In this document: one piece after another, positions 18,521 through 64,000 of the stretch
Position numbering within the stretch: position 1 is the stretch's first letter
Layout: every line of letters begins with the position of its first letter
Source: an uncultured Candidatus Saccharibacteria bacterium
GTDB lineage: Bacteria; Patescibacteriota; Dojkabacteria; SC72
Assembly (NCBI GenBank): GCA_964405015.1
Contig: CAYOME010000001.1
Coordinates: forward strand, 165,584 to 229,583
Direction: 5' to 3'
DNA: 64,000 nt
Notes under the pieces: model-generated
What the model was told of the DNA's origin: nothing
The model's database searches: none
What the model saw: the letters and a program-made list of their open reading frames with translations, nothing else
Translations under genes and position numbers: made by a program

Positions 18521-19981
18521 ATGACTACAAAAGAATTAGAAAAACAACTTAAGAAGTACTCTCCGAAAAGCTTTCAAGATGAAATATCTAAAGGTATGGA
18601 GCTATCCAGTAAATATCATACAGATCAAAAAAGGCTCTCAGGAGAACCGTTTTACAATCACTCTTTAAGGGTAGGACTTACACTCGCTAATATGGGATTT
18701 GAAACAAATACAATCTTAGGAGGATTACTCCATAATGTTCTATCCAAAAATCCTGATAAAGTAGATGAAATAGAAAAAGAAATAATTAATATACTTGGAC
18801 AAGATGTCCTTTTTTTAGTTCATAGTTGTGATGACATAAGTAAGGCTACAGGTAGTCACGATACAGAATACGAGGTTATTAATAAATACATATTAAATAG
18901 TGCTACAGATTTAAGACCCGTACTCATTAAACTCGCAGATACACTAGACAATGTAAGGACAATAGAATATATGCCCTCAGAAAGAGTAGGCTCTAAGATA
19001 CAAAAGGTCTTTAATATATATGGACCCTTAGCAGAATATCTTAACCTTAACTTACTTAAAAAAGAACTAGAAGAGAAAGCACTAGAAATATATAGACCAG
19101 AGGAATACATAAATATTAAAAATATGCTTGAACAAAATGGTTTTACATCTGAAATGAGAGAAAAATATATTTCATACTTCGAAGGCCTGCTTAAAAATAT
19201 CCCTGGTACACAAATCGTACATGGGAGAGTAAAAAGTATATATAGCATATACAACAAACAAAAGAAGATACTAAAAGAAGGATACAATATAAATATATCA
19301 AACATCCCAGACCTTCTGGCCTTCAGAGTTATTACAAACTCCGAGGATGAATGTTTTAAAATGCTAGAGATAATAATGGATATTGGTGAGATACTAACAC
19401 CTCAATTTGATGACTACATATCCCATCCTAAACCAAATGGATACAAAGCATTACAAGGCCCAGTCATTCTTCCATCTGTCTCTTCCAATATAGTTGAAAT
19501 ACAAATACTTACTCAAGATATGCACTACCACAATACATATGGACCAGCATCACATATTGCATATAAGGAGAGTAAAAGTAGATTTGCCAAGGCAACTGAT
19601 AAATATAACTGGGTTGAAACCATACACAAAGAAATGGATAGAAATATATCAAAAAGAGAAGAGAGAAGATCTCTTCCAATAACTGTAGATATATTTGGAG
19701 AAAAAGTATATGCATTTACTCCAAAAGGAAAAATCATTCAACTTGATAAAGGAGATACTGTTGTAGATTTTGCCTACTTAGTACATACCGATATTGGTAA
19801 TAGTATGGTATCTGCTAAAGTAAATGGTAAAGCTGTAAGACTCAGCTATAATGTCCAAACAGGAGATACAATAGAGATTAAGACTCAAACTGGTAAAAAA
19901 AATGTCAACCCCGATTGGATGAAATATGCAAACTCTCCAAGTACCCAAGCTAAAATACAAAAGACTTGGAAAAAAGTATAG
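18521..19981 (+). CDS. Short RelA/SpoT-homolog (p)ppGpp synthetase with a degenerate HD domain and a TGS domain
   Basis: It has the HD-like N-terminal region, but LLHNVL replaces the usual LLHDV. The synthetase core is present (RVKSIYSIYNKQKK, DLLAFRVIT) and the C-terminal TGS domain is present (FTPKGKIIQLDKGDTVVDFAY). At 486 aa it has no ACT/RIS domains. Confidence 0.75.
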   Translation: MTTKELEKQLKKYSPKSFQDEISKGMELSSKYHTDQKRLSGEPFYNHSLRVGLTLANMGFETNTILGGLLHNVLSKNPDKVDEIEKEIINILGQDVLFLVHSCDDISKATGSHDTEYEVINKYILNSATDLRPVLIKLADTLDNVRTIEYMPSERVGSKIQKVFNIYGPLAEYLNLNLLKKELEEKALEIYRPEEYINIKNMLEQNGFTSEMREKYISYFEGLLKNIPGTQIVHGRVKSIYSIYNKQKKILKEGYNINISNIPDLLAFRVITNSEDECFKMLEIIMDIGEILTPQFDDYISHPKPNGYKALQGPVILPSVSSNIVEIQILTQDMHYHNTYGPASHIAYKESKSRFAKATDKYNWVETIHKEMDRNISKREERRSLPITVDIFGEKVYAFTPKGKIIQLDKGDTVVDFAYLVHTDIGNSMVSAKVNGKAVRLSYNVQTGDTIEIKTQTGKKNVNPDWMKYANSPSTQAKIQKTWKKV

Positions 19982-37237: not shown

Positions 37238-37648
37238 CCCTCAAATACAATAAACAGTCATACTGTTTTAAAAGAAAGTAATACCAAATTTAACCCAACA
37301 ACATGCCCACATTTTAAAGATTGTCTTGTTTGCAAACTACATGATACTGATTGTGATAAATATGTAGAAATACTCTCCTATGGAGATGTTCACTTAGATA
37401 CCAACAGATATATACTTCATATAAAGGGAAATATAATTCATTTAACAAAATGTGAGAATATCTTCCTTACTTACCTATTAACCAAAAAAACCTATGTACA
37501 TATACAAGAAGTTAAAGAATTGTTCAAAAGGAATAACTGTAAATCTATTACTGTAATGATTAGTAGATTAAGAAGAAAGATCAGGAATTCAACGGGATAT
37601 AACCCAATAAAGAATAGATATGGTCTTGGATATTATATTTCTAATTAA
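37238..37648 (+). CDS. Stand-alone OmpR/PhoB-type winged-helix DNA-binding protein with an N-terminal Cys cluster (no canonical start codon found; possible pseudogene)
   Basis: The open frame after the stop at 37235-37237 translates to ...CPHFKDCLVCKLHDTDCDKY...GDVHLDTNRYILHIKGNIIHLTKCENIFLTYLL...VMISRLRRKI...GLGYYISN. This matches the Trans_reg_C wHTH consensus. There is no ATG, GTG or TTG before the domain, and the ORF track misses it. Confidence 0.45.
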   Translation, partial: PSNTINSHTVLKESNTKFNPTTCPHFKDCLVCKLHDTDCDKYVEILSYGDVHLDTNRYILHIKGNIIHLTKCENIFLTYLLTKKTYVHIQEVKELFKRNNCKSITVMISRLRRKIRNSTGYNPIKNRYGLGYYISN

Positions 37649-40266
37649 ACTTTCTTCTTCCATTCAGAGATCTTATTTAGAGCTTCTAATGGTGTTAGGT
37701 TATCAATATCTATCTTTTGTATATCCCTCTCTATCTCAGAATCTTTTGAAAGAAATAGGGGGAATTGATATGTACTTTTCTTTTCATCAATCTTTGTATC
37801 TTTAATATCCAAGATACTTCCCTCTCTAAGATCAGACTCTTTGCTAAACATTTGCTCCTGTTCAAAACTTTCCAATATCTCGTTTGCTCTTTTAATCATC
37901 TTCTCTGGTAAACCAGCCATCTTAGCAACATAGATACCATAGCTTCTATCTGTACCACCCTCTACAATCTTTCTAAGAAATATTACACTACCTTCTTCTA
38001 AATCTTCTTCAACAAGTACATTGAAATTTTTCACCCTTCCTAAAATCTTCTCAGAGAGTTTGAGTAATTCATGATAGTGGGTTGCAAACAAAGTTCTTGC
38101 TTTAACATCATTAACTAAATACTCAGCTAATGCCCATGCAATACTAACCCCATCGTATGTACTTGTACCCCTTCCTACCTCATCTAAAACGATTAAACTG
38201 AACCTCGTTGCATTGTTTACAATATTTGCAGCCTCATCCATCTCAACCATAAAGGTACTCCTACCACGAGATAGATCATCAGAAGCTCCAACCCTTGTAA
38301 ATATCCTATCTACCAAAGAAAGCTCCATTTCCTTTGCAGGAACAAAACTCCCTATCTGAGCAAGTAATACAATACTTGCTACTTGTCTAATATATGTTGA
38401 CTTACCCGACATATTAGGACCAGTTAGAACTGCCATAGAGGAGTCAGAGAAATTCAAAAGAGTATCATTAGATATGAACTCTTCTTCTATTAAACTTTCA
38501 ACAATAGGGTGCCTACCATCTTTAATTCGAAGAATTCCATCCTTTTCACCCATATTATAAAGCTTCGGTTTACAATATTCTTTTGTATTTGCTAAATATG
38601 CAAAGCCAAGCAATACATCTATCTTAGCAATTTCCTTAGAGAGTTCTTGTAACTTAGGTATATCCTTAATTAATGTATTCCTAAATTCTGTAAATATTTT
38701 GTATTCAAGCTCTGAAATTTTTTCCTGAGCATTCAAAATTATACTCTCCTTGTTCTTTAGTTCTTCAGTAATATATCTTTCACAATTGACTAGTGTCTGT
38801 TTTCTAATATATCTATCTGGTACTTTGTCTTGATGTGTTTTTGTTACTTCTATGTAATATCCAAACACCTTGTTAAACCCTATCTTAAGAGAAGATATCC
38901 CTGTTTGAGATTTCTCTCTCTCTTCAAATTCTTTAATCCACCCCTTACTGTTTCCAGATATATCCCTTAATTCAGAAACTTCTTCATTGAAAGAAGCTTT
39001 AATAATGCCACCTTCTAACAGCGAGGTAGGTGGGGAATCCACGATACATTCATCAATACGCTTAACAACATCATTAATTACTTCCAAGTAAGGATCAAAT
39101 TCTTTAGAGAGATCCGGAATACTACTTAATTGAGAAACAAATTGAAGTATATTTTCTAAAGATATCTGCAAAGCTTTTAAATCTCTACCATTAGCTCTAT
39201 TTAGACCTATCTTCCCAACAATCCTCTCTATATCGTTCATTCCATTCAATATTTCCCTCAAGCTATCTAATATCTCTCTAGATGAAAGAAAAAGCTCTAC
39301 AATTTTCTGTCTATCTTCTATACCTTTTAAATCAATCAATGGATTAAGTAACCAGGAATACAACATTCTTTTGCCCATGAGTGTTGATGTAAAATCTATT
39401 ACACTCAAAAGTGAATTTTGAATATTACCTGAGTATGCATTAGCAACTATTTCTAAGTTTCTTACAGTAGCCCTATCTAATATCATATTACCGGATATGT
39501 TTACTTTCTTAGGTCTTTGTATATGCTTAGGATCCATTAACTGAGTCTCAACAATATATTCCAATATCATTGCAAGACTTGAGACAGTAGGTGAATCACT
39601 GTTTAAACCTAAAGATTCTATATTTTGTATATGGAAAAATTCTTTAATCTTTCCTTCACTGTACTGTTTGTTCCTAATGCTTTTCGATACAAATTGAACA
39701 GGTAATGTAGGAAAGCTTAACTCTTTTTCATTCTCAAGTATTAATACCTCAACGGGTTCATATGAAGAGAGTATTGATTCTATATTCTTCTTAGAATTAT
39801 CAGTATATATGTACATAAGGTCTCCAGTTGAGACATCACACAAGGAAACACTTAAAGTTTTTTTCTCAATATAAAATGCTGCAAGGTAGTTATTTTTGAC
39901 CTCATTTGCGTTGTCTCCATCTAAAGTACCAGGAGTAACGATACGTGTTACGCCTCTTTTAACAATACCTTTTGCAAGTTTAGGATCTTCTAATTGATCA
40001 ACTATCACTGTGCAATATCCTGCATTAATTAACTTGGGTAAGTATTGTTCTATTGCTTTATGAGGAAATCCTGCGAGTGGAGTAGGGTTTGTATTTTTAT
40101 CTCTTGTTGTAAGAGTAATATTTAACACCTTAGAAGTAATCTTTGCATCTTCTCCGAATGTTTCAAAAAAGTCTCCCATTCTAAAAAGCACAACCTTATC
40201 GGGGTATTGCTTTTTAAATTTCATATATTGACTCATCATTGGAGTCTCTTTTATTCCAATATCCAT
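37645..40266 (-). CDS. mutS: DNA mismatch repair protein MutS
   Basis: 873 aa with the mismatch-binding N-terminus (FYELFGEDA-like MGDFFETFGEDA), Walker A GPNMSGKSTYIRQ and the ST..DE..RGTST block. Confidence 0.9.
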   Translation of the reverse strand: MDIGIKETPMMSQYMKFKKQYPDKVVLFRMGDFFETFGEDAKITSKVLNITLTTRDKNTNPTPLAGFPHKAIEQYLPKLINAGYCTVIVDQLEDPKLAKGIVKRGVTRIVTPGTLDGDNANEVKNNYLAAFYIEKKTLSVSLCDVSTGDLMYIYTDNSKKNIESILSSYEPVEVLILENEKELSFPTLPVQFVSKSIRNKQYSEGKIKEFFHIQNIESLGLNSDSPTVSSLAMILEYIVETQLMDPKHIQRPKKVNISGNMILDRATVRNLEIVANAYSGNIQNSLLSVIDFTSTLMGKRMLYSWLLNPLIDLKGIEDRQKIVELFLSSREILDSLREILNGMNDIERIVGKIGLNRANGRDLKALQISLENILQFVSQLSSIPDLSKEFDPYLEVINDVVKRIDECIVDSPPTSLLEGGIIKASFNEEVSELRDISGNSKGWIKEFEEREKSQTGISSLKIGFNKVFGYYIEVTKTHQDKVPDRYIRKQTLVNCERYITEELKNKESIILNAQEKISELEYKIFTEFRNTLIKDIPKLQELSKEIAKIDVLLGFAYLANTKEYCKPKLYNMGEKDGILRIKDGRHPIVESLIEEEFISNDTLLNFSDSSMAVLTGPNMSGKSTYIRQVASIVLLAQIGSFVPAKEMELSLVDRIFTRVGASDDLSRGRSTFMVEMDEAANIVNNATRFSLIVLDEVGRGTSTYDGVSIAWALAEYLVNDVKARTLFATHYHELLKLSEKILGRVKNFNVLVEEDLEEGSVIFLRKIVEGGTDRSYGIYVAKMAGLPEKMIKRANEILESFEQEQMFSKESDLREGSILDIKDTKIDEKKSTYQFPLFLSKDSEIERDIQKIDIDNLTPLEALNKISEWKKKV

Positions 40267-40319: not shown

Positions 40320-42923
40320 CTATTTTTTACCAAGTATTAGCTTTGCTTCTTCATCAGATACGAGTTTCCTAGACTCTTTGATATCCTTGTAGTTTACAGA
40401 TACTCCATATACACCCATTTGTACACTATATTTGATTAGATCTTTGCTACCCTCTGTCATAACTATTACTCTTCTTGGAGTATTCCTAGTTACATCTACA
40501 ACGGCATCTACAATTTTGTATGCACTATTTACACCAAGATTGTATCTAGCATCTATGTCATTAATATCGAAGCCTTGCATTACTCTAACTATTCTAGGCA
40601 TGTTTAGTACTAACCCATCTATTTTTGAATCTAGTATTTCATCTGCCATTATTACTTCTGTAGGTGTATCTATGATTGCATATACCCTAAATGTAGAAGT
40701 TCTTCTAAGTCCAATAGAGGAGAGACTCTTCTTAAAGTCAGAAACTAGTGTACTATTTTGTGGACTATGTATAGCTAAATCAACATTTCTTTTTTTGTAT
40801 ACATTCCTCAATCTTTTAACAATCATCAATACTCTCTTAAGTAATTCCTTGTTATTTATGTAATGTGATATACCAAAGATTGACAGCTGATTTTCATCTT
40901 CAAAGTCTTTACCTCTCTTAAGTGCCTTAAAATCTGCTACACTAGCAGAACCCAAAGAAAGTAATACGTTGTTTCCTTCAGCTAAATCTACATATTTACA
41001 TATCCTCTCCACAATATCTTTAGAATATTCAACAAATTTTTTCTCCTCTACAAATGCTAATGGGTGCCTTCCAACCTTAAGCAATATTTGATCAAGATCT
41101 ATATAGCAGAGGCCATGAGAATTACCAACATAGTCAATTAACTCATCACTTTCTACATTAGGGTTTACAAATACCTTTGTAGCAGAAGGTGGAAGAGAAA
41201 CATCATGAGGAATCTTACTCTCATATTCAGAAGGTTTCTCAGTTTCAGTAACCTGTGAAGTAGGTACACTCCTAAGTAAATCTATCCCTTCTAAATTCTC
41301 TTCATTGTATGCCTCTACTACCGGATGTACCTGCTGTGGTTCACTCTTACCTTCAACTACCATTTTTGCCTCATTACTTCTTTCCCTATACACTGACCCT
41401 GCCTTACCATCAATTCTTACAATATCTCCGTCCTTTAATACATTTGAAGCATTTGTAGCCCCAACTATTGCTGGGATATCAAATTCTCTACAAAGTATTG
41501 CAGTATCGCTAGTTACACCACCAGTTTCCAATATGACTCCACCGGAATGAACAATGAGAGCTTCCATTTCATTTCCATATTTTTTGATAAGGAGGATATC
41601 ATTCTTACTTACTGCAACATCAGCACTTCTATCTACACATACAACCTTACCAATTACTTGACCAAAACTCGCACCAATACCAGAAACTAGTAAATCTTCC
41701 TTACTCTCAGTAAGAGTAGATGTAACTACTGGTTGAGGTTTACTCTCTATTGTTTTCTTTGCAATATTTATTAACTTCTCCGTCAACGAATTCTTTTCCG
41801 TCCTATTACTCTGTACTATCTTTTTTGCATGTTCAACAGCCTTACTCTCCAACATACCAATACCCATATATTTGTCTACTGTCCATTTAAGAACCTCACC
41901 CAAGGTATCAAAATCTTTAGCCTCAACAATGACCAACTGATCAGTACTTCTCTCATACAAATCCTTACTCTGTAATACCCATACTCTCCCACCAGATATT
42001 ACCCATTCAATATTTTGAGCTTGTCTTAATTTGTTCTCTACTATTAAAGCAATCTTAGATATCTCTTGTAAGTACTTGTCTTCAACTTTCTGTCTGTGGC
42101 TCCAATTAGATGATATCTTAATCTTTTCTACATTTGATTTACCTTTAACAGTTCCACCCAGCATTCTTACTTTCATCCAATCTTGTGGAGAAATATGTTT
42201 TTCAATTATATTCAATTCTCTTTTGTTAAGTAGATATGTATCAGGTGTTAACTCTCCCAATGCAATACTATCTCCTAGTCCAAATACTGCTTCGATACTT
42301 AATTTTGAAGGATCTTGAGTTATTGGATCTACTGTAAACGCTACACCAGAAACTTCAGCTTGAATCATCTTTTGAACAACAACAGCAATCTTTACATCAG
42401 AAAGATTAATACCCTTAGAAGAGGCATATGCAACTACATCATCAGTAAACAAGGAACCATATATCCTCTTAACAGAATCAAACAAATTCTTTATACCTCT
42501 AATATTCAACTCCGTAGAAAAAATCCCAGAGAATGAAACATCAGGAGCAGAAGGAAACACAACAGAAGATCTTACAGATACCCATGCATCAGTAAATCCA
42601 GAGAGTCTGGTATACGCTGTTAGTATTTCTTCTAATACTTCAGGAGAAAAGTCTGTTTTCAATATTGATTCAAGTATCTCTGATTCTTCAGGATTCTTAC
42701 CCTTTTCAAAAAGCTTCTGTGAATCTCTAAGCAAAGATTTTGAAATTATATCTTCAAATACATTAGAGGAAATTACAAAAAACTCAGGTATTGGAATATC
42801 CATATCCTTAAGTTCAAAGAGACTTAATCCTTTTCTTCCTACAGTAGATTCTTTAAGATTTCTAGCTTGAAAATCTTCCCAATAGTAGATTGATCTATTA
42901 ATCTTTGTAATATTTGATGACAT
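40320..42923 (-). CDS. PEP-synthase/pyruvate-phosphate-dikinase-like protein with Asp in place of the phosphocarrier His
   Basis: N-terminal PPDK_N ATP-grasp region and a central PEP-utilisers mobile domain whose signature reads GGVTSDTAILCREFDIPAIVG (canonical GGRTCHAAIIARE.GIPAVVG). The C-terminal domain of about 350 aa is divergent. Confidence 0.65.
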   Translation of the reverse strand: MSSNITKINRSIYYWEDFQARNLKESTVGRKGLSLFELKDMDIPIPEFFVISSNVFEDIISKSLLRDSQKLFEKGKNPEESEILESILKTDFSPEVLEEILTAYTRLSGFTDAWVSVRSSVVFPSAPDVSFSGIFSTELNIRGIKNLFDSVKRIYGSLFTDDVVAYASSKGINLSDVKIAVVVQKMIQAEVSGVAFTVDPITQDPSKLSIEAVFGLGDSIALGELTPDTYLLNKRELNIIEKHISPQDWMKVRMLGGTVKGKSNVEKIKISSNWSHRQKVEDKYLQEISKIALIVENKLRQAQNIEWVISGGRVWVLQSKDLYERSTDQLVIVEAKDFDTLGEVLKWTVDKYMGIGMLESKAVEHAKKIVQSNRTEKNSLTEKLINIAKKTIESKPQPVVTSTLTESKEDLLVSGIGASFGQVIGKVVCVDRSADVAVSKNDILLIKKYGNEMEALIVHSGGVILETGGVTSDTAILCREFDIPAIVGATNASNVLKDGDIVRIDGKAGSVYRERSNEAKMVVEGKSEPQQVHPVVEAYNEENLEGIDLLRSVPTSQVTETEKPSEYESKIPHDVSLPPSATKVFVNPNVESDELIDYVGNSHGLCYIDLDQILLKVGRHPLAFVEEKKFVEYSKDIVERICKYVDLAEGNNVLLSLGSASVADFKALKRGKDFEDENQLSIFGISHYINNKELLKRVLMIVKRLRNVYKKRNVDLAIHSPQNSTLVSDFKKSLSSIGLRRTSTFRVYAIIDTPTEVIMADEILDSKIDGLVLNMPRIVRVMQGFDINDIDARYNLGVNSAYKIVDAVVDVTRNTPRRVIVMTEGSKDLIKYSVQMGVYGVSVNYKDIKESRKLVSDEEAKLILGKK

Positions 42924-42945: not shown

Positions 42946-44100
42946 CTAAATGCTACCTTTAGCTTTTAATTTTTGCAAGTCTATATAGAACTCATAGCAT
43001 ATCCTCATAATGACAATTGCTGGTACTGCCAATACTGCTCCCCATACACCAAAGAGTACAAAGAATGTAAATGCAGCAAACATAATAAAGATGGGTCTTA
43101 CGCCCATCACATTTCCCATTATTTTAGGCACGATAATGTTGTTTTCTAATTGCTGATATACAAAGAATACAACCACAATTATCAATGCTGCCAATGGGCC
43201 CTTTACAACAATGGCTATTAATATTGGAGGTATTGCTCCAATAGTTGCACCTAGGTTAGGTATAGCGGACATTAATGCTACAAATACCGCTATAGGGAGA
43301 GCAAATGGTACACCTAAAATCCAGAGTGTTAAACCCATTACTAAACCAGCAATACTACTTATCAACGCTTGACCTAGTAACCATCTACCTAACTTACTTT
43401 CTACTTCAAGTACCAATTCCTTTACTCTATTCCTCTTTGCATCGGACACGATCCTTACCAAACCAAACTCTAAGATATTGTCATGATCTAATACTAGATA
43501 TATAGAAAAGATTACAGAAGCAAAGAGTAGGGCTGTAGAACTAAATACAGAACCAAGAGTATTAGCAATATTTTCGAAACTCTCAAATATTGTAAATTTC
43601 TCAAAGAAATCCTTAACAAATGTATTTATCATCGAAGTTTCAATTGTATATCCCAACACATTAATATCTTGGATATCCTTTGAAAGTAAATCTATCCATC
43701 TTGGAACTGCTTTAACTAACTCATCTATTTGATCAATGAATGGGAATACGACAACAGAAAGTACAGCAGAGAGAACTACAAAACCCAAGAAGTAAGTTAA
43801 TGCTACTGCAAGTCCCTTACCAACTTTTCTTGAAGTAAGAAATCTGACAACAGGCCTAGAGGTAGACATGAATACAAAACCTCCAAAGAGGAATATGAAT
43901 ACTGTTAACAATTCTTTACCTAAGAAAAATACTGCAAGTAGAAAAAGTACAGCTAAAACAAACTTCCATGAGAACTCAACAACGATAGTGGGCTTTTTGA
44001 CCTCATCTCTTTGCCTGTACTTCTCTAACTCTCTTAAATCTTGTACTAAGTTACTCTCAGTGGAAATCTTTTTCGAATCCATGTTTAATATTTTAGCCAT
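42946..44100 (-). CDS. AI-2E (PerM/UPF0118) family transporter-like membrane protein
   Basis: 384 aa with about 8 TM helices in the arrangement typical of the AI-2E family. The call is from topology and length only. Confidence 0.5.
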   Translation of the reverse strand: MAKILNMDSKKISTESNLVQDLRELEKYRQRDEVKKPTIVVEFSWKFVLAVLFLLAVFFLGKELLTVFIFLFGGFVFMSTSRPVVRFLTSRKVGKGLAVALTYFLGFVVLSAVLSVVVFPFIDQIDELVKAVPRWIDLLSKDIQDINVLGYTIETSMINTFVKDFFEKFTIFESFENIANTLGSVFSSTALLFASVIFSIYLVLDHDNILEFGLVRIVSDAKRNRVKELVLEVESKLGRWLLGQALISSIAGLVMGLTLWILGVPFALPIAVFVALMSAIPNLGATIGAIPPILIAIVVKGPLAALIIVVVFFVYQQLENNIIVPKIMGNVMGVRPIFIMFAAFTFFVLFGVWGAVLAVPAIVIMRICYEFYIDLQKLKAKGSI

Positions 44101-45239: not shown

Positions 45240-45266
45240 AAAAAAGAGGGGCTTGCACCCCTCTTA
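45233..45266 (-). terminator. Rho-independent terminator (minus strand) after the sortase-substrate gene
   Basis: On the plus strand an A-run precedes the hairpin AGAGGGGcttgcaCCCCTCT, so on the minus strand the hairpin is followed by T8. Confidence 0.65.
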
Positions 45267-50271: not shown

Positions 50272-51303
50272 TTATAAATCCTTCTCCTTCTTAAGTTCCT
50301 TTAGTAATTCAAGCATGTGTTTTTTGAGATCAATATTCTCATCGAATAAACCGGTTCCATTTCTCTCCCAGGTCATACTTTTATCATCAATCATATTCCA
50401 AAAGTATAATTCTTCCACATATCCCTTTTCAGTACACAACTCTTTAAATAACCTATATGAATATCCCTGATACTCATACCAAGTAGGATAGGAAATACCA
50501 TCGCACACTACCTCTTGTTCTGGATTGATACTACCACCTTCATAATCTCCATTTTTAGGACCAATATCAAATTCAGTAATTATCAATGGTAATTTTGCAC
50601 TATCATGTATTTCGTCTAATACTCTATTGAGCGATTCTGTTGTAGGCAAGAAGAAAGGTCTTGGATAATATCCGCTATGAGCCTGTTCTCCTATGATATC
50701 TATTCTCCCTCCCAATTTCTTAATGTTATCAACTAGAATTAGAAACGGCTTTCTTATTTCTTCTCTAATTAAACAACCATATTCATTTATCATATACCTA
50801 CCTTCTGGATATTCATCTATAGCCCATTTAAAGATATCAGCAATTACATCTGTTTTTTTCATTTCTGTACCTAAAAAGTTCTCTTCATCTTCCTTGACTA
50901 TTTCGTTTACTAATTTAAAGAATGAGACTTTTCCCTTGTATCTATTTATTACAGCTCTAACATGATTTTCCAACGCTTGATATTTTTTATCAGAATCAAG
51001 TTCTTTATACCACTCTGGGAATACATCTAAACGCCCTGTAATTACAGTATTGAAATGAATACAAACACCATTCTCTTTAGCAAAATCAACAAGAAGATCA
51101 ACATTCTTCCAATCATATTCTATTTCAATATTCGGACCCTTAGCGATCATTCCAAATATCCCAGTTCCATACATCCCAAAGTTATTAAAATACTCTAAAG
51201 CCATTTCCTTGTACTTTGAAGATATGTTTTGTGAAGCAACATCATTAAAATATTTATGGTGAAGAATAGTTCCAGTTTTCATATAGAAGCGAGTTCTTTT
51301 CAA
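50272..51303 (-). CDS. Glycoside hydrolase family 10-like (beta/alpha)8 enzyme, no signal peptide
   Basis: It aligns with GH10 landmarks: VCIHFNTVITG, RYKGKVSFFKLVNEIV (acid/base Glu in the VNE context), RYMINEYG, RIDIIGEQAHSG and LPLIITEFDIG (nucleophile Glu in the ITEFD context). Confidence 0.55.
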   Translation of the reverse strand: MKRTRFYMKTGTILHHKYFNDVASQNISSKYKEMALEYFNNFGMYGTGIFGMIAKGPNIEIEYDWKNVDLLVDFAKENGVCIHFNTVITGRLDVFPEWYKELDSDKKYQALENHVRAVINRYKGKVSFFKLVNEIVKEDEENFLGTEMKKTDVIADIFKWAIDEYPEGRYMINEYGCLIREEIRKPFLILVDNIKKLGGRIDIIGEQAHSGYYPRPFFLPTTESLNRVLDEIHDSAKLPLIITEFDIGPKNGDYEGGSINPEQEVVCDGISYPTWYEYQGYSYRLFKELCTEKGYVEELYFWNMIDDKSMTWERNGTGLFDENIDLKKHMLELLKELKKEKDL

Positions 51304-56982: not shown

Positions 56983-57007
56983 AAATGTATAAGTATCCAT
57001 ACCTATT

Positions 57008-60000
57008 AATGAAAAAACTGCCTAGAATACAGATAAAAAATATTAACAGACGAATCTTAGTAACAATAACTGCCATAATATTGTTAGTACCTTTGTTAAT
57101 TGTTTCACTACCATATATCAAGGTCTGGCAAGCGAGAGCTGCTGCAACAATATATTGGGATGGTGGTGGTGATGGAACATCATGGTCAAATGCACTAAAC
57201 TGGAATACCGATGTAGTACCAAGCCCAACAGATGAAGTCTTGATAGATACGGCAAGTACAGTCAATATTACGGATCCAATAACAGTAACCTCTCTTACTT
57301 TAGGAAAATCTGATGGAAGTGCAGCTACTGTATTACAATTTTCATACGATGCCGTAACACTTGGAGCATTAACTATTACTGGTAGCGAATTTAGATTAAA
57401 TCCAGGAGCAATCGTTAGACATGTAGATTACAATGGAGTTAACCCTGCAAAAGTAAATATTGATGTTCAAACAGGAAATGCCTTAATTCTTGGTTCTATA
57501 AATGTTGATGCGAGAGGGTACAGAGCGGGTGATGGACCAGGACAAGGAACTGATGGTGGTGATGGTGGTGGAGGTGCTGCGTACGGAGGTAATGGTGGAA
57601 GAGCACAGCAAGGATATGCAGGAGGTACTGGGTATGGGGTATATACACTCCCTACCGAATTTGGTAGCGGTGGTGGAAATAGATCTGGATATGCAAGCAC
57701 TGGAGGTCATGGAGGTGGAGTCGTTAAGCTAAGCGTTGGTGGTACTTTAACTGTAACGGGAACTATAACTGCAGATGGAAATGTAGGAGCAAACTCTGGT
57801 GATCGAAAACCCGGAGGTGGGAGTGGTGGTTCAATATTAATTACTACTGGGACCATAACTGGTAATGGAATTGTAAAAGCAAACGGAGCACAGGGTGGAG
57901 ACTCCAACTATGATGGAGGTAGTGGTGGAGGAGGAAGAATTGCAATATATTACACTACTAATACATCTTCATTCTCTACTTTAGCAGCTGCGGGTGGAAA
58001 TTCAACCTTAGCGGGTTCTGCACAATATGGTGGGGCAGGTACAATATATATGAAAACACCTTCTCAGACTAATGGTGATTTAATAGTTAGCAACAATGCT
58101 TCAGGATGGTCTACCAACCTTTCTGCAGAAGTACCATATACTCCACTTCCAAGCGCTTTAACACTTGATAATCTAACAATATCGAAATTCGCCAATGTAA
58201 ATTATACTGATACCCTCACCGTAGGAACTACTTCAGAGGTTTCATATTACGCATATCTTAATCTAACAGGTACTGCAACACTTAATACTTTCAATATTAA
58301 TAATAGTGGTCATTTTTTCTCCCAAGTTACAGCAACAACTACATACAATACCATTAACTGGACAGGGGGAATCATAACAGATAACGGAGGAACGTTTGCA
58401 CTTGTTAGTGGTGGAGCTGCTCTAAGTATTCCAACAGGATCAATATTAAATGGAAATGTTCAAAGAACATTCACCAATGTCACTGTTGATGGTACTCTTT
58501 CTCATACAGAGAATGGAGCGACACCAACAAACAAACTAGACTATATTATTAGTGGAAATCTTACTGTTAATCTATCTGGAAGAATTAATGTAAACGAAAA
58601 AGGATATGCCCCAAGCCAAGGTCCTGGACAAGGAGTTGATCAAGAGGGTGCTGGTGGTGGTGCATACGGAGGAAATGGTGGAAATGGTGCAAACGGAGTA
58701 GGTGGTACTGCGTACGGAAGTTTAACAATACCCACTGACCTTGGAAGCGGTGGTGGATTAAGAAGTGGTAGTGGAGTTTACGGTGGAGGAGCAGTAAAAC
58801 TTACAGTAACAGGTACGACAACAATAAATGGAGATATTACTTCAAATGGTGGATATGGAGACGATGGTTCAGATAGAGATCCAGGAGGTGGTAGTGGTGG
58901 CTCTATCTTAATATATACTGGCACATTAACAGGTACTGGAAATATCAACGCAAATGGTGGTAATACAAAAGATACAAACTACGATGGCGGTGGTGGTGGT
59001 GGTGGAAGAATTGCTTTGTACTTCACTAACGATACTTCCACATTCGCTTCCTTAACCGCTGATGGAGGAAGACCTGGAGCTGGAGGTAGGTATGGTGGAG
59101 CTGGTACTATTTACCTTAAAGACAACGACGATACATACGGTGATTTGATAATAGATAATAATGAACCATCTTGGTACACACAATATTACTATGTTGCATT
59201 AACACCCTTACCTTCAAATCTTACACTTAAAAACATGACCATTGCTGACTTCTCTATTATTGAGTCTTCACAGAGTCTTTCTGTAACTGGCGACTTAAAC
59301 ATATCTAAATATTCTCACTTTAAAAATATTGGAACCGCAACTCTTAACAACATAAACATTACAGATAATGGATGGTATTACAATGAATCAGGATCTACTA
59401 CTACATATACAACTATTAACTGGACAGGGGGAATCATAACAGATAATGGTGGAACATTTGCATTACTAAGTGGAGGAAATGATCTTTCTATTCCCACGGG
59501 ATCGACACTAAATGGAAATGTACAAAGAACATTTAACAACGTTACAATAAACGGAACTTTAACTCATACCGAAAATGGAGCTACACCTGTTTACAAACTA
59601 GATTACATAGTAAATGGAGATTTACTTGTAACTTCATCAGGACAAATAAATGTAAATCTCAAGGGATATGCAATGAGTGAAGGACCCGGTGCAGGTGCAG
59701 ACGGTAGTGGTGGAGGTGGTGCAGGATATGGAGGCTATGGAAGTAATGGCGATAACTCAGTTGGGGGTCAAGCATATGGAAGTATTACACAACCAACCGA
59801 TCTTGGTAGTGGAGGTGGATATGGATCAAACTGGGGAGGTAATAGCCGAGGAGGTGGAGCGATCAAACTTTCAGTTGCAGGGACACTTACCGTTAATGGA
59901 TCAATAGTCTCTAATGGTGCAAATGGAAATGATGGCACTGACAGAGTACCAGGGGGAGGAAGTGGTGGCTCAATATGGATTACAACAGGAACACTCTCTG

Positions 60001-63000
60001 GTACTGGTACCTTTACTGCAAATGGTGGAAATGCATCAGATTCTAACTCTGATGGTGGAGGTGGTGCAGGTGGAAGAATTGCTCTGTATTTCACAACAAA
60101 TAATGCAACTCTTGCGACATTAACAGCTGATGGGGGTAGACCATCAACCTCCAAAGCATACGGTGGTGCTGGAACTATATATATTAAAGACAATGATGAG
60201 CCCAATGCAGATTTAATAATTGACAACAATGAAACCTCGTGGAATACAGCCCTAACTTCTATTGCTCCGACCCCAATAAGTACAAACCTTAACTTAAAAA
60301 ATTTAACAATCACTGATTTTGCCCGGGTTGAAACTTCAAATACCATAAATGTTGTAAATGAATTATTCTTAGGTCAGAAAGCATATTTTGTAAATACTGG
60401 TAATGTGTCCACAAACACATTCAATATTTTAGAAGCCTCTACATATCTTAATCAAGCAACATCATCAATAACTTACAACACACTTAATTGGACTGGAGGT
60501 AACGTTACTGATAATGGAGGAAACTTTGCACTTTTAAGTTCAGGCGATAATTTGCTAATACCTATCGGATCGACCCTGTATGGAAATGTCCAAAGAACAT
60601 TTACCGGTCTTACTGTGAATGGAGTTTTAACCCATACAGAAAATGGATCAACACCTCAATATAAACTAGATTACATAGTAAATGGAGATTTACTTGTAAG
60701 TTCAACTGGACAAATAAATGTAGATCTTAAGGGATATGCAATGAGTGAAGGACCCGGTGCGGGTGGAGATAGTGGTGGTGGTGGGGGGGGTGGATACGGA
60801 GGTAATGGTGGAAATGGACAAACTGGAGCTGGTGGTCAAGCATATGGAAGTATGACAGAACCAACCGATCTTGGTAGTGGTGGTGGATATGGTTCAAACT
60901 GGAGAGGTAATAGCCGAGGAGGTGGAGCTGTTAAACTTACAGTTTCTAATTCACTTACGGTAAATGGTTCAATCATTGCCAACGCCGGTGGTGGTGGTGA
61001 TGGTACGGACAGGGTACCAGGAGGTGGAAGTGGTGGATCAATTTGGTTAATAACTGGAACACTTGCGGGTACTGGTACAATTACAGCAAATGGTGGGAAT
61101 GGAGGAAATTGGAACTCTGACGGTGGTGGTGGTGGTGGTGGAAGAATAGCTTTGTATTATAAAGAAAACACTTCAACATTTAGCCTATTTACCGTTAATG
61201 CTGGTACTGGAGGTGGAGCAGCTTTAAATGGTTCTGTAGGAACAATATTCCTTGGAGGCTTCCCAATGAATCCAATAAATATGGCTCAATACAAAATAGA
61301 TGGTGTAACTGGTATCGGGGCAGGTGCAGCTACAAACGAAAACAGTATGAAGATAAAATTCCAAATGATGGACCCTAATAATACAGATACACTAACACCC
61401 GAAGTAGAATTTGTACCTTTAGGAACCGCATTTAGTAATGTAGCAACAAATACAGGAACTCCAGTATCTTACACGGGTGCAGCAGTAAATGGAGAAGTAG
61501 AAGTAACAGGATTAGCAGATGGAAGCTCATACCACTGGCAAGCAAGAATATGTGATGCAACAGCTCTTTGTTCTGATTGGACTAGCTTTGGAAACAATAC
61601 AGAGGCGGAAGCTGATGTAAGAGTAGTAATGAATGCAGATCCAAATTCACCAACAATACCCGAATCCTCTTTCTATATAAACGCACAATATACTAACAAT
61701 CTTCAACCTACATTAGGATTTGTAATTACAGACTCAAATACCGTTGACTCAGTAGGATATCAGATACAAATAGCAACAGATGCTGACTTTAATACGATCA
61801 TTACAGATTACACCTCCGCAATGGCTGCACAAGGCACACAAACCTTTACAGTAGGACAAGCAGCAGGAACAGGAACATATGCTGAAGGAGCTGAATCTCA
61901 AGAACTTACAACTGGTGGATATTACTGGAGAGTCATGGCTATTGATGATAAAGGTGGAACATCAGATTGGACTGTTGCACCAGGTACACCATCATTTAGA
62001 ATAGATCTTTCGAGACCAACAAATGCAACCTCAGTATTTGTTAAAGCATATGCAGGAGCTACAGATCAATATTCAGAAGGAGCTGAAAACGTCTGGTTTA
62101 GAAGAAATGATCTTTACTTTAGTTGGACAGCAGGTACAGATACACAAGGGGTAAAAGGTTACTGTATATATGTTGGAGACAACCCCAATGGAGATCCAGC
62201 AACAGAGAAAGGATTGCTAGGATCATCCCCTATTAGTACTACAGGTACAACATGCCAATTCATTACTGACCAAACAGAAATTGATTTCTCTAATTCCGCT
62301 CTCAGAAGCTATGAATGGTTAACATCGAGTAATACAAAATATTACTTCAAGGTAAAAACTATAGATATCGCAAACAATGTATATGAAGGACCAGATGTAT
62401 CAAACTATGTATCTTTCAATTTTGATAATACAGCTCCACAAAATGTAACAGCAATATCAACACCAAGTATTGTATTCTCAAATATTGCAGATATGTTCTT
62501 TAGCTGGACAACTGGAACTGCAGGAGCCTCTGATGATAATTCACAAGTATTAGGATTCCAATATGCTATTAACACAAGAGATACTTGGTGGGGCAATGCC
62601 ACAGATACCTTCACAGGGGTAACATATTCTCCAATGGATAGGACACAACCTCTATATCTACCAGAGGAAGTACATAGTTCTGTTCAATTAGGACAAAATA
62701 CTGTCTACTTTAGAGTTGTAGACCATGCAGGTAACTACTCTGAATTAAGAACAGCTGTTCTTAACTATGGAGGAGAAGCTCCTAAGTTTGCACAAGGAGA
62801 TGAGATAACTGTAACTCCAGTGGAAAATACCACCAACACATTTGCATTCAGCTGGCCAGCAGCAACAGCATCAGTTGGAAATACAGTAGCTACATACTAC
62901 TACATGATAAATACACCACCACCAGCATCATATTCAACAATTACTTCTAACTCAGCAACATATATAGCTACTACAGAAACATCTCTTGAAGAATTCTTGG

Positions 63001-64000
63001 TACCAGGACTAAGAAAGGGAGCAAATACAATATATATTGCTGTTGTAGACGAAGCAGGAAATTACTCACCAACAAATGCACTCTCAGCAACCTTTAACTT
63101 GAATTCTGAATTGCCAGATTCTCCATTAGATGTTGCAGTTGCAGATATTTCGATAAAAGATGTATCTATTTGGAGAGCAGCAGTTGTATGGAGTGAACCA
63201 GAATATCAAGGTACAGGGACCTTAACATACCATGTATATAGATCAGAAGATGGAGAGACATGGGAAGAAATTGCAACCACAACAGGTCTTACATATGTAG
63301 ACACAGTCCCAGAATCAAAAACATATTACTGGAGAGTAGCTACAACAGACAACTCCGATGAATCTATAGCAAGTCCATCAATATCAAATGGGGTTTCATT
63401 GGTACCAAGAGGAAAATATCTAGTACCACCAGATCTAACATCAGGTCCTGCAAGCTCATCAATATCTACAACTAAGGCAACAATATCCTGGACTACAAGT
63501 AGAATTGCAGATAGCAAGGTAGCATTTGGTTTAGAAAGTAACAATTACTTTGAATCCGAATCCTACAATTCTTCAGAAGTAACAGAGCACAAAATTGTAC
63601 TAAGCAACTTAACACCAGGTACAGAATATTTCTACAAAGCAAAATGGACGGATGAGGATGGTAATACAGGATCAAGTGATGAATTAACATTTACTACAGA
63701 ACCTGCACCTCAAGTGAAAGATGTAAGGATTAGTAATAGAGGAGTAAGTGGAGCAATAATTAACTTTACGACTGTTAAAGCAAGTAGTGTAAAAATATAT
63801 TACGGAACAACTACAAACTTTGGTGGAGTAAAAGAGATAGCTACATCTAAATTAGAAACATCATATGCCTTAGAATTGAATCAACTAGATGATGGTACCA
63901 AATATTACTACAAGATAAATACACTTGATGAAGAAGGAAAAGAGTATGAAGGTACTACTCTTGATTTCACTACATTACCAAGACCAAGAGTCTACAACAT
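57008..64000 (+). CDS. Giant secreted repeat protein (more than 2,330 aa, 3' end outside the window) with Gly-rich beta-helix-like modules and C-terminal Fn3-like domains
   Basis: Translated by hand, the frame is open from the ATG at 57008 to the window end. The N-terminus carries a signal/anchor (MKKLPRIQIKNINRRILVTITAIILLVPLLIV). About 3.5 tandem modules of roughly 355 aa follow (GYRAGDGPGQG...GGGRIAIYYT...GGAGTIY...TINWTGGIITDNGGTFAL...). Then come several Fn3-like units with YYWRV and TEYFYKAKW signatures. The ORF track omits it because there is no stop inside the window. Confidence 0.8.
57500..61260 (+). repeat. About 1.07-kb tandem coding repeats (3.5 copies) inside the giant gene
   Basis: Near-identical DNA blocks recur, for example ttaactggacagggggaatcataacagataa at about 58355 and 59415, with a diverged copy at about 60485. 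The blocks ggatatgcaatgagtgaaggacccggtgc at about 59665 and 60735 also match. Confidence 0.75.

Follow-up and report, generated by a model that had tools for sequence, protein, structure and literature searches.

A stretch of 64,000 nucleotides (hereafter "the window"; GC content of 34%) from the assembly of an uncultured Candidatus Saccharibacteria bacterium (GCA_964405015.1, contig CAYOME010000001.1, positions 165,584 to 229,583), which GTDB places within Dojkabacteria, encodes a complete protein of 867 amino acids resembling the phosphoenolpyruvate (PEP) synthase PpsA, in which the phosphocarrier histidine is replaced by an aspartate, Asp473 (proteins of this kind are called "D-type" below). 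As judged from its sequence, this protein seems to have lost both the His-mediated relay and the PEP/pyruvate chemistry and is not a PEP synthase, as the canonical chemistry would be impossible with the His gone and the PEP, pyruvate and Mg ligands, together with the catalytic Cys, replaced. The reading that we favour, albeit at somewhat less than even confidence, is that of a PpsA-derived pseudo-dikinase without a phosphoryl relay, the selected function of which would lie in the binding or hydrolysis of Mg-ATP by its ATP-grasp domain.

Swivel loop, barrel and ATP-grasp domain

The protein retains the three-domain architecture of PEP synthases, two of the domains being recognised by Pfam and the third, the barrel, by its predicted fold, and its homology to the PEP-utilising superfamily is evident both from sequence (phmmer E of 6e-60 to PDB entry 8a8e) and from structure (Foldseek E of 2e-27 to 2ols). 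The NCBIfam PpsA model NF005057 matches it end to end, at 315.8 bits against an equivalog cutoff of 598, and TIGR01418 scores 280.5 against a cutoff of 739.75. The AlphaFold2 (AF2) model, built on an alignment of 94 sequences, has a mean predicted local distance difference test score (pLDDT) of 71.9 and a predicted template modelling score (pTM) of 0.43, and its global Foldseek template modelling (TM) score is ~0.3 to all of the pyruvate, phosphate dikinase (PPDK) conformers, which makes it uninformative on conformation. The features of the gene are as follows, with the open reading frame (ORF) taken from the ORF listing and its translation:

40320..42923, minus strand: complete gene of the 867-residue PpsA-like D-type protein, with Asp for the phosphocarrier His
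41940..42848, minus strand: N-terminal ATP-grasp domain (PPDK_N), residues 26-328 (Pfam E of 5e-64)
41610..41939, minus strand: helical linker, residues 329-438, of varying length across the family (AF2 helices 341-372 and 380-394)
41397..41609, minus strand: swivel ("PEP-utilizers mobile") domain, residues 439-509 (Pfam E of 2.6e-18; pLDDT ~80)
41460..41522, minus strand: former phospho-His loop GGVTSDTAILCREFDIPAIVG, residues 468-488 (exact string match)
41505..41507, minus strand: GAT codon of Asp473, the residue aligned with the catalytic His (H421 in E. coli), from alignments and a hidden Markov model (HMM)
41193..41381, minus strand: residues 515-577, a variable insert separating swivel and barrel, pLDDT 30-50 (AF2 and conservation profile)
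40329..41192, minus strand: C-terminal TIM barrel, residues 578-865 (eight AF2 beta-strands, pLDDT 80-92)

The linker combines a low pLDDT with weak conservation among the orthologues, and the variable insert holds a locally conserved HPVVEAY motif. When set against PpsA proper (EC 2.7.9.2; E. coli, PDB 2ols, 8a8e and 9dae), the D-type protein is alike in full-length homology, domain order and the residues that engage the ATP phosphates and Mg, and its barrel superposes at a TM score of 0.8, but it has Asp for His, a replaced PEP/pyruvate site and the extra variable insert between swivel and barrel. PPDK (PDB 1kbl, 2r82 and 5jvl) has the same swivelling-domain architecture and fold, and the D-type protein differs from it in the same respects and, in addition, in the variable position of the Q-x-R-P Arg.

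The loop that would present the phosphocarrier reads GGVTSDTAILCRE, its canonical counterpart being GG-x-T-S/C-H-A-A-I-x-x-R-E, and Asp473 aligns with the catalytic His of the solved PEP synthases, so that the His expected of a PEP synthase is not found in its column. A phmmer search against the PDB pairs GGVTSDTAILCREFDIP with GGRTSHAAIVSRELGIP of the PEP synthase 8a8e, and the same loop also with the loops of 9dae and of the rifampin phosphotransferase (RPH) chain 5hv2, and both the multiple alignment and the swivel-domain HMM put D473 in the column of H421 of E. coli PpsA. The preliminary description of this DNA had quoted the minus-strand stretch as encoding a His-to-Asp replacement at the phosphocarrier position; the quoted residues are indeed encoded exactly, with 41490-41515 falling inside the motif, and the replacement stands in the alignments to the PpsA structures, to rifampin phosphotransferase and to E. 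coli H421. In the AF2 model, the helix 473-480 begins with Asp473 and has Ser472 at its N-cap. The residue following the Asp is variable, bulky and often beta-branched; in the canonical enzymes this is an invariant Ala. No receiver, HAD or P-type ATPase family match was obtained from Pfam or NCBIfam, and Asp473 sits in the PEP-utilizers swivel fold.

There is no alternative phospho-His in or beside the loop. Of the candidates further away, H533 (within HPVVEAY) lies in the low-confidence insert outside of the swivel fold, and H620 is a structural "HP" His common to canonical PpsA. Five residues after Asp473 there is also a near-invariant Cys of the clade, C478 (41490..41492; ILCRE, as compared with the canonical IVSRE/IIARE), in place of which a few of the deep branches have A, S or M.

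The barrel shows a preserved fold around a replaced active site. In PPDK and Enzyme I, six barrel motifs provide the catalytic Cys, along with three Arg, a Glu and, as ligands of metal and PEP, an Asn-Asp pair. Going from E. coli PpsA to the window protein, GVGLARLE has become GLCYIDLD, VRLSDF has become LSLGSA (within LLSLGSAS), GFRG has become IFGI (within IFGISHY), MCEIP has become IIDTP, GSNDMTQ has become NMPRIVR and ICGQ has become VMTE, which leaves the PEP/pyruvate site of D-type proteins with none of the three Arg, without its Glu and Asn-Asp pair, and devoid of the catalytic Cys. The six motif positions are consistently altered or variable across the clade; both E. coli PpsA and the canonical PpsA found in the Candidate Phyla Radiation (CPR; Microgenomates, WWE3 and Gottesmanbacteria) keep GxGLxRxE, xxYRxxDF, GxRG, MxEIP, GxNDLTQ and ICGQ. 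The residues on the catalytic face of the barrel are not conserved clade-wide, and neither a conserved polar constellation in place of the PEP site nor an acceptor site is visible across the clade. At the same time, the modelled barrel reaches TM scores of 0.80-0.81 to the PpsA C-domains 9dae_A and 8a8e_A, and the isolated domain has PpsA C-domains as its only PDB matches (E of 8.6e-10). The description of the C-terminal PEP/pyruvate domain as highly divergent thus proves to be accurate, with all six motifs replaced and the Pfam match of PEP-utilizers_C to residues 635-857 remaining sub-threshold (E of 0.021; 14.5 bits against a cutoff of 22.8).

The ATP-grasp domain had been taken to be intact, and this, too, is supported by its Pfam match as well as by its invariant Mg-ATP residues. 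K31, R118, T137 and E306 correspond to Lys22, Arg117, Thr136 and Glu297 of RPH, through which the ATP phosphates and Mg2+ are positioned (PMC4844700), and all four are invariant, including in the lineages with a variant residue in place of Asp473; Q318, too, is present both in the window protein and clade-wide. The K-loop has changed from GGK to GRK, an Arg thereby being gained in most of the D-type sequences (P0187 and P0200 included). The sister forms P0147, with its His retained, and P0149, with a fully degenerate loop, have the ATP-grasp motifs EKxIxPQEWM and WxxxQK of the clade as well.

Conservation, taxonomic spread and canonical relatives

Orthologues were sought among 5.8 billion proteins, by scanning GTDB species at one genome each (at least 541 stretches encoding relatives, of which 80 loci were kept) and by an exhaustive HMMER search over 1.8 billion cluster representatives, the residue in the His column of distant relatives being read by means of the swivel-domain HMM. 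T-S-D is present in all of the 120 close orthologues (54-100% identity), and the 77 readable species-level loci have Asp in 74 cases (GAT in 64, GAC in 10), with Glu, Asn and Ala once each and no His at all; a truncated 78th locus (L064) has Asp as well. Asp also occupies the position in the ~28 best clusters (33-62% identity) except for P0130 (Asn) and P0136 (Ala), and His returns among the cluster representatives only at ~30% identity, in canonical-looking PpsA. The His-to-Asp change therefore holds in orthologues, and a His was sought both among these and, by better alignment, elsewhere in the motif, and was seen in neither place. Essential catalytic residues are thus missing from an intact ORF that is conserved in many species, which is what is expected of a pseudoenzyme.

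Every informatively named locus among the 80 kept belongs to Candidatus Dojkabacteria/candidate division WS6. Names were taken from record titles and sources, the many titles reading "uncultured Candidatus Saccharibacteria" being set aside as what look like generic labels given on submission. The D-type protein marks a deep family present across this lineage. A short form of 685-775 residues, also from Dojkabacteria where its source is named, has S-D and the ATP-grasp motifs as in the long form, with no recorded PEP-utilizers_C domain and no PF02896 signal. Public annotations call these proteins "phosphoenolpyruvate synthase", "pyruvate, water dikinase" or "PEP/pyruvate-binding domain-containing protein", and our literature searches found no published description of a His-to-Asp PpsA-like family.

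A further search, seeded with P0147 as the nearest His-bearing relative, retrieved PpsA that is canonical in all respects from Microgenomates, WWE3 and Gottesmanbacteria. The search also yielded P0354, a Dojkabacteria-named protein (L084 4143-6644, GCA_020429425.1) that has every catalytic motif and whose gene, at a locus unrelated to that of the D-type genes, is flanked on one side by a transglutaminase-like gene and on the other by an unknown one, and not by mutS; P0348 (L085 6001-8424, GCA_964501355.1), likewise canonical throughout, is a second PpsA belonging to the same group. Because P0354 combines all of the catalytic motifs with an unrelated locus, the D-type proteins appear to be a family separate from genuine PpsA. 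Some of the relatives are seemingly intermediate in their decay: in P0147, the His is still present alongside all three Arg, but the Glu, Asn and Cys are gone; P0163, also with its His, has the Glu and only the second Arg left, the first and third (G-x-R-G) Arg having disappeared together with the Asn-Asp pair and the Cys; and P0149 has lost the entire GG-T-S-H loop. The pattern in P0147 and P0163 suggests that decay of the barrel may have preceded the loss of the His.

Two further kinds of PpsA homologue were encountered among the cluster representatives. P0177, P0206 and P0210 (~1170-1230 residues) have the loop split just before the catalytic His (GG-x-T-C ... N-C-H-A-A), a pattern that an active-site intein would give. 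P0192 (2309 residues), P0211 (2648 residues), P0193, P0205, P0260 and others combine at least one ATP-grasp domain with three to six tandem His-bearing swivels, an architecture unlike that of PpsA or PPDK.

What Asp473 might do

In the pseudo-dikinase reading, the binding of ATP, probably with slow hydrolysis to AMP, would serve a switch, regulatory or scaffold role, and the swivel and barrel would survive as structural modules, probably for oligomerisation. The carboxylate of Asp473 would stabilise the N-terminus of the helix that once presented the phospho-His, and may also mimic the phosphorylated state without carrying a phosphate. Asp, Asn, Glu and Ala are all ordinary residues at a helix N-terminus, and the position of Asp473 at such a place thus provides a structural reason both for its conservation and for the Asn, Glu and Ala exceptions. 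The two Ala-bearing sequences, P0136 and L080, keep all the other invariants, and since they share the Ala at 59% identity, Ala seems to be a stable state in one lineage; the Asn of L071 reflects a recent change from Asp (this sequence is 83% identical to that of L069, which has Asp), and the Glu is that of L065. At the position aligned to the Arg of the canonical Q-x-R-P, an Arg that we take to be PPDK Arg337, members of the clade have K, R, M, Q or T. Taken together, the Ala lineage, the variable Arg337-equivalent and the location of Asp at the helix N-terminus argue against an obligatory aspartyl-phosphate relay.

Constraint seems to have shifted as well. Mean pairwise identity within the clade is 0.48 for the ATP-grasp domain, 0.38 for the swivel and 0.33 for the barrel, whereas in a set of canonical PpsA it is 0.55 for the swivel, 0.47 for the barrel and 0.44 for the ATP-grasp domain, and, the two sets being of different phylogenetic depth, it is the inversion of the ranking alone that is relied on here. 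The ATP-grasp domain is the most conserved one of the clade, and selection would now appear to bear most on it. The preliminary description had left the choice between a pseudo-enzyme or regulator and chemistry via an acyl-phosphate intermediate; the first of these is the one favoured by the Ala lineage, the Asp-to-Asn pair, the variation in the Arg337 column and the shift of constraint, and the second, which has the retention of S-D and the intact Mg-ATP residues in its favour, is the lesser-favoured of the two.

Swivels and phosphocarriers that have left their relay are known from other systems. The C-terminal domain of the Geobacillus/Bacillus pyruvate kinase (PDB 2e28), which is matched by the D-type swivel, is a swivel-type domain outside of the dikinase relay; this PEP-utilizer-like domain, however, still has T-S-H and resides on an active enzyme. 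Crh is a natural His-less paralogue of HPr. In HPr itself, exchanging the phosphocarrier His for Asp is phosphomimetic and abolishes >96% of phosphotransfer, so that there, as proposed here, an inefficient relay residue has taken the place of the His and a regulatory role is left, although HPr is a small carrier of an unrelated fold and its His15Asp is engineered, whereas the D-type Asp is natural and lineage-fixed (PMC3526391).

Several points nevertheless weigh against the pseudo-dikinase reading, the unequal depth of the identity sets among them. Within the loop, S-D is retained best, also in relatives that lack GG and RE (P0154, P0165, P0171 and P0175), a conservation stronger than helix capping alone might predict; the full Mg-ATP catalytic set exceeds the needs of mere binding; and the inter-domain geometry of the AF2 model is unreliable at its pTM.

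These are, in part, the very observations that a genuine carrier would account for. It is conceivable, if rather unlikely, that the ATP-grasp domain (pyro)phosphorylates the carboxylate of Asp473, and that the swivel either hands the aspartyl-phosphate on to some new acceptor or employs it as a timed switch. Phosphorylation of carboxylates is the ancestral chemistry of the ATP-grasp superfamily, and HPr His15Asp of E. coli is reported to be a slow phosphate acceptor and donor. Asp is found in ~96% of the species with both of its codons in use, S-D persists in highly degenerate loops, every residue positioning Mg-ATP is intact, and the new K-loop Arg (GRK) could stabilise the carboxylate or an acyl-phosphate. 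Yet the Ala lineage and the Asn and Glu variants retain all of the other conserved features, the Arg337-equivalent is not conserved, and there is no visible acceptor site to which the phosphate would go, with the catalytic-face residues unconserved and the barrel of the short form eroded. Moreover, a bulky residue after the Asp and the shorter side chain of the Asp itself would hamper the canonical docking geometry, and the HPr precedent is one in which >96% of transfer is lost (PMC3526391). The more specific form of this idea, a natural "Asp-relay dikinase" in which an aspartyl-(pyro)phosphate on the swivel is passed to an acceptor or acts as a labile timer, we regard as improbable.

Just as unlikely as a genuine carrier, in our estimation, is an ATP-grasp domain that now works as a kinase or ligase on a new substrate, be it a small molecule or a protein, with Asp473 of the swivel acting as a lid, general base or metal ligand. 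The strong and full conservation of this domain, Mg ligands included, would fit such a role, and RPH, PigC/RedH and HpeI, which have the ATP-grasp domain in common with the D-type proteins (with the equivalents of RPH Lys22, Arg117, Thr136 and Glu297), show that the scaffold is readily re-used and can leave central metabolism. RPH, however, keeps its phosphocarrier (His825), a dedicated substrate domain and a C-terminal swivel, and the D-type proteins have neither the His nor an evident substrate domain (PMC4844700). No re-use of this scaffold is known in which the His has been given up. EKxIxPQEWM and WxxxQK, which might have marked a new pocket, occur in P0147 and P0149 too and are therefore lineage markers, and the neighbours of the gene are housekeeping genes, with no accessory biosynthetic or catabolic genes nearby.

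That the protein is still a PEP synthase or PPDK-like enzyme working with alternative residues is very unlikely. The retained three-domain architecture and barrel fold, as well as the public annotations as pyruvate, water dikinase or PEP synthase, would agree with it, but the His and all of the PEP/pyruvate-site residues are lost, the scores lie far under the curated PpsA cutoffs, the short form has no recognisable barrel signal, and canonical PpsA exists separately in CPR and in one metagenome-assembled genome labelled as Dojkabacteria. WS6 genomes lack gluconeogenesis, which leaves a PEP synthase without an obvious role there (Wrighton et al., PMC5113843). For CPR organisms without pyruvate kinase, PEP synthetase has been suggested to take over the PEP/pyruvate step (Jaffe et al., PMC7304191), and the Dojkabacteria D-type protein, going by its residues, could not fill that role. 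The idea of an error in sequencing or assembly, or of a pseudogene in decay, has nothing beyond the unusual residue to recommend it and a negligible probability, given the intact ORF, the many invariant positions and the retention of the residue, through both of the Asp codons, by hundreds of independent assemblies.

D-type proteins thus appear to be mis-annotated as "pyruvate, water dikinase", and the PEP/pyruvate step should not be credited to the Dojkabacteria protein. They also constitute a natural experiment on the phospho-His swivel mechanism, Asp being fixed at the carrier position in hundreds of species next to an apparently competent Mg-ATP site, and allow for a question to be posed: does a dikinase scaffold run on an acyl-phosphate here, or has it become an ATP-dependent switch? 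If Asp473 were a true carrier, an Asp relay would be operating in an entire candidate lineage with a minimal metabolism. In either case, the retention of an 850-residue protein in genomes of 0.6-1.2 Mb, with fixed mutS synteny, makes it likely to be important to this uncultured lineage.

Genomic context and other observations

The gene lies within a run of genes in the order trigger factor, ClpP, sortase, immunoglobulin (Ig)-like surface protein, YibE/F, AI-2E permease, PpsA-like protein, MutS, histidyl-tRNA synthetase and penicillin-binding protein 1, the neighbouring features of which are:

42946..44100, minus strand: AI-2E family transporter gene, 22 nt upstream of the PpsA-like gene (PF01594 E of 6.7e-56)
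37645..40266, minus strand: mutS, 53 nt downstream of the PpsA-like gene (from its translation)
45244..45265, minus strand: strong terminator-like hairpin AAGAGGGGTGCAAGCCCCTCTT with a 9-bp stem of which 5 pairs are GC, followed by a T-run

The hairpin is located between the gene of the Ig-like surface protein and YibE/F, upstream of the YibE/F, AI-2E and PpsA-like run, and is a possible boundary of a transcription unit; no terminator-like site is present between the permease, the PpsA-like gene and mutS. The AI-2E permease is adjacent to the PpsA-like gene in 71 of 81 loci and mutS in 66 of 81, which is essentially every locus long enough to show it, and the order AI-2E, PpsA-like, mutS holds down to 33% protein identity across Dojkabacteria. 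The short form is found directly upstream of mutS as well (L082, where the Pfam domains MutS_I to MutS_V are present), with the permease absent. We know of no functional link between the PpsA-like protein and MutS, and the synteny with the AI-2E permease and mutS serves as the only contextual lead, and as a lead only, to a cellular target. PADLOC returned no defence-system match for either the PpsA-like protein or its upstream neighbour.

Elsewhere in the window from this small CPR-type genome, a RelA/SpoT homologue with HD, RelA_SpoT and TGS domains is encoded at 18521..19981 (plus strand) and a glycoside hydrolase of family 10 (xylanase-like) at 50272..51303 (minus strand). An ORF of at least 2338 residues, which runs off the window end (56985..64000, plus strand) and contains Ig-like (Rha78A_N) and purple-acid-phosphatase-N/PhoD-N (FN3-like) domains, probably represents one of the very large surface proteins that CPR genomes commonly encode.

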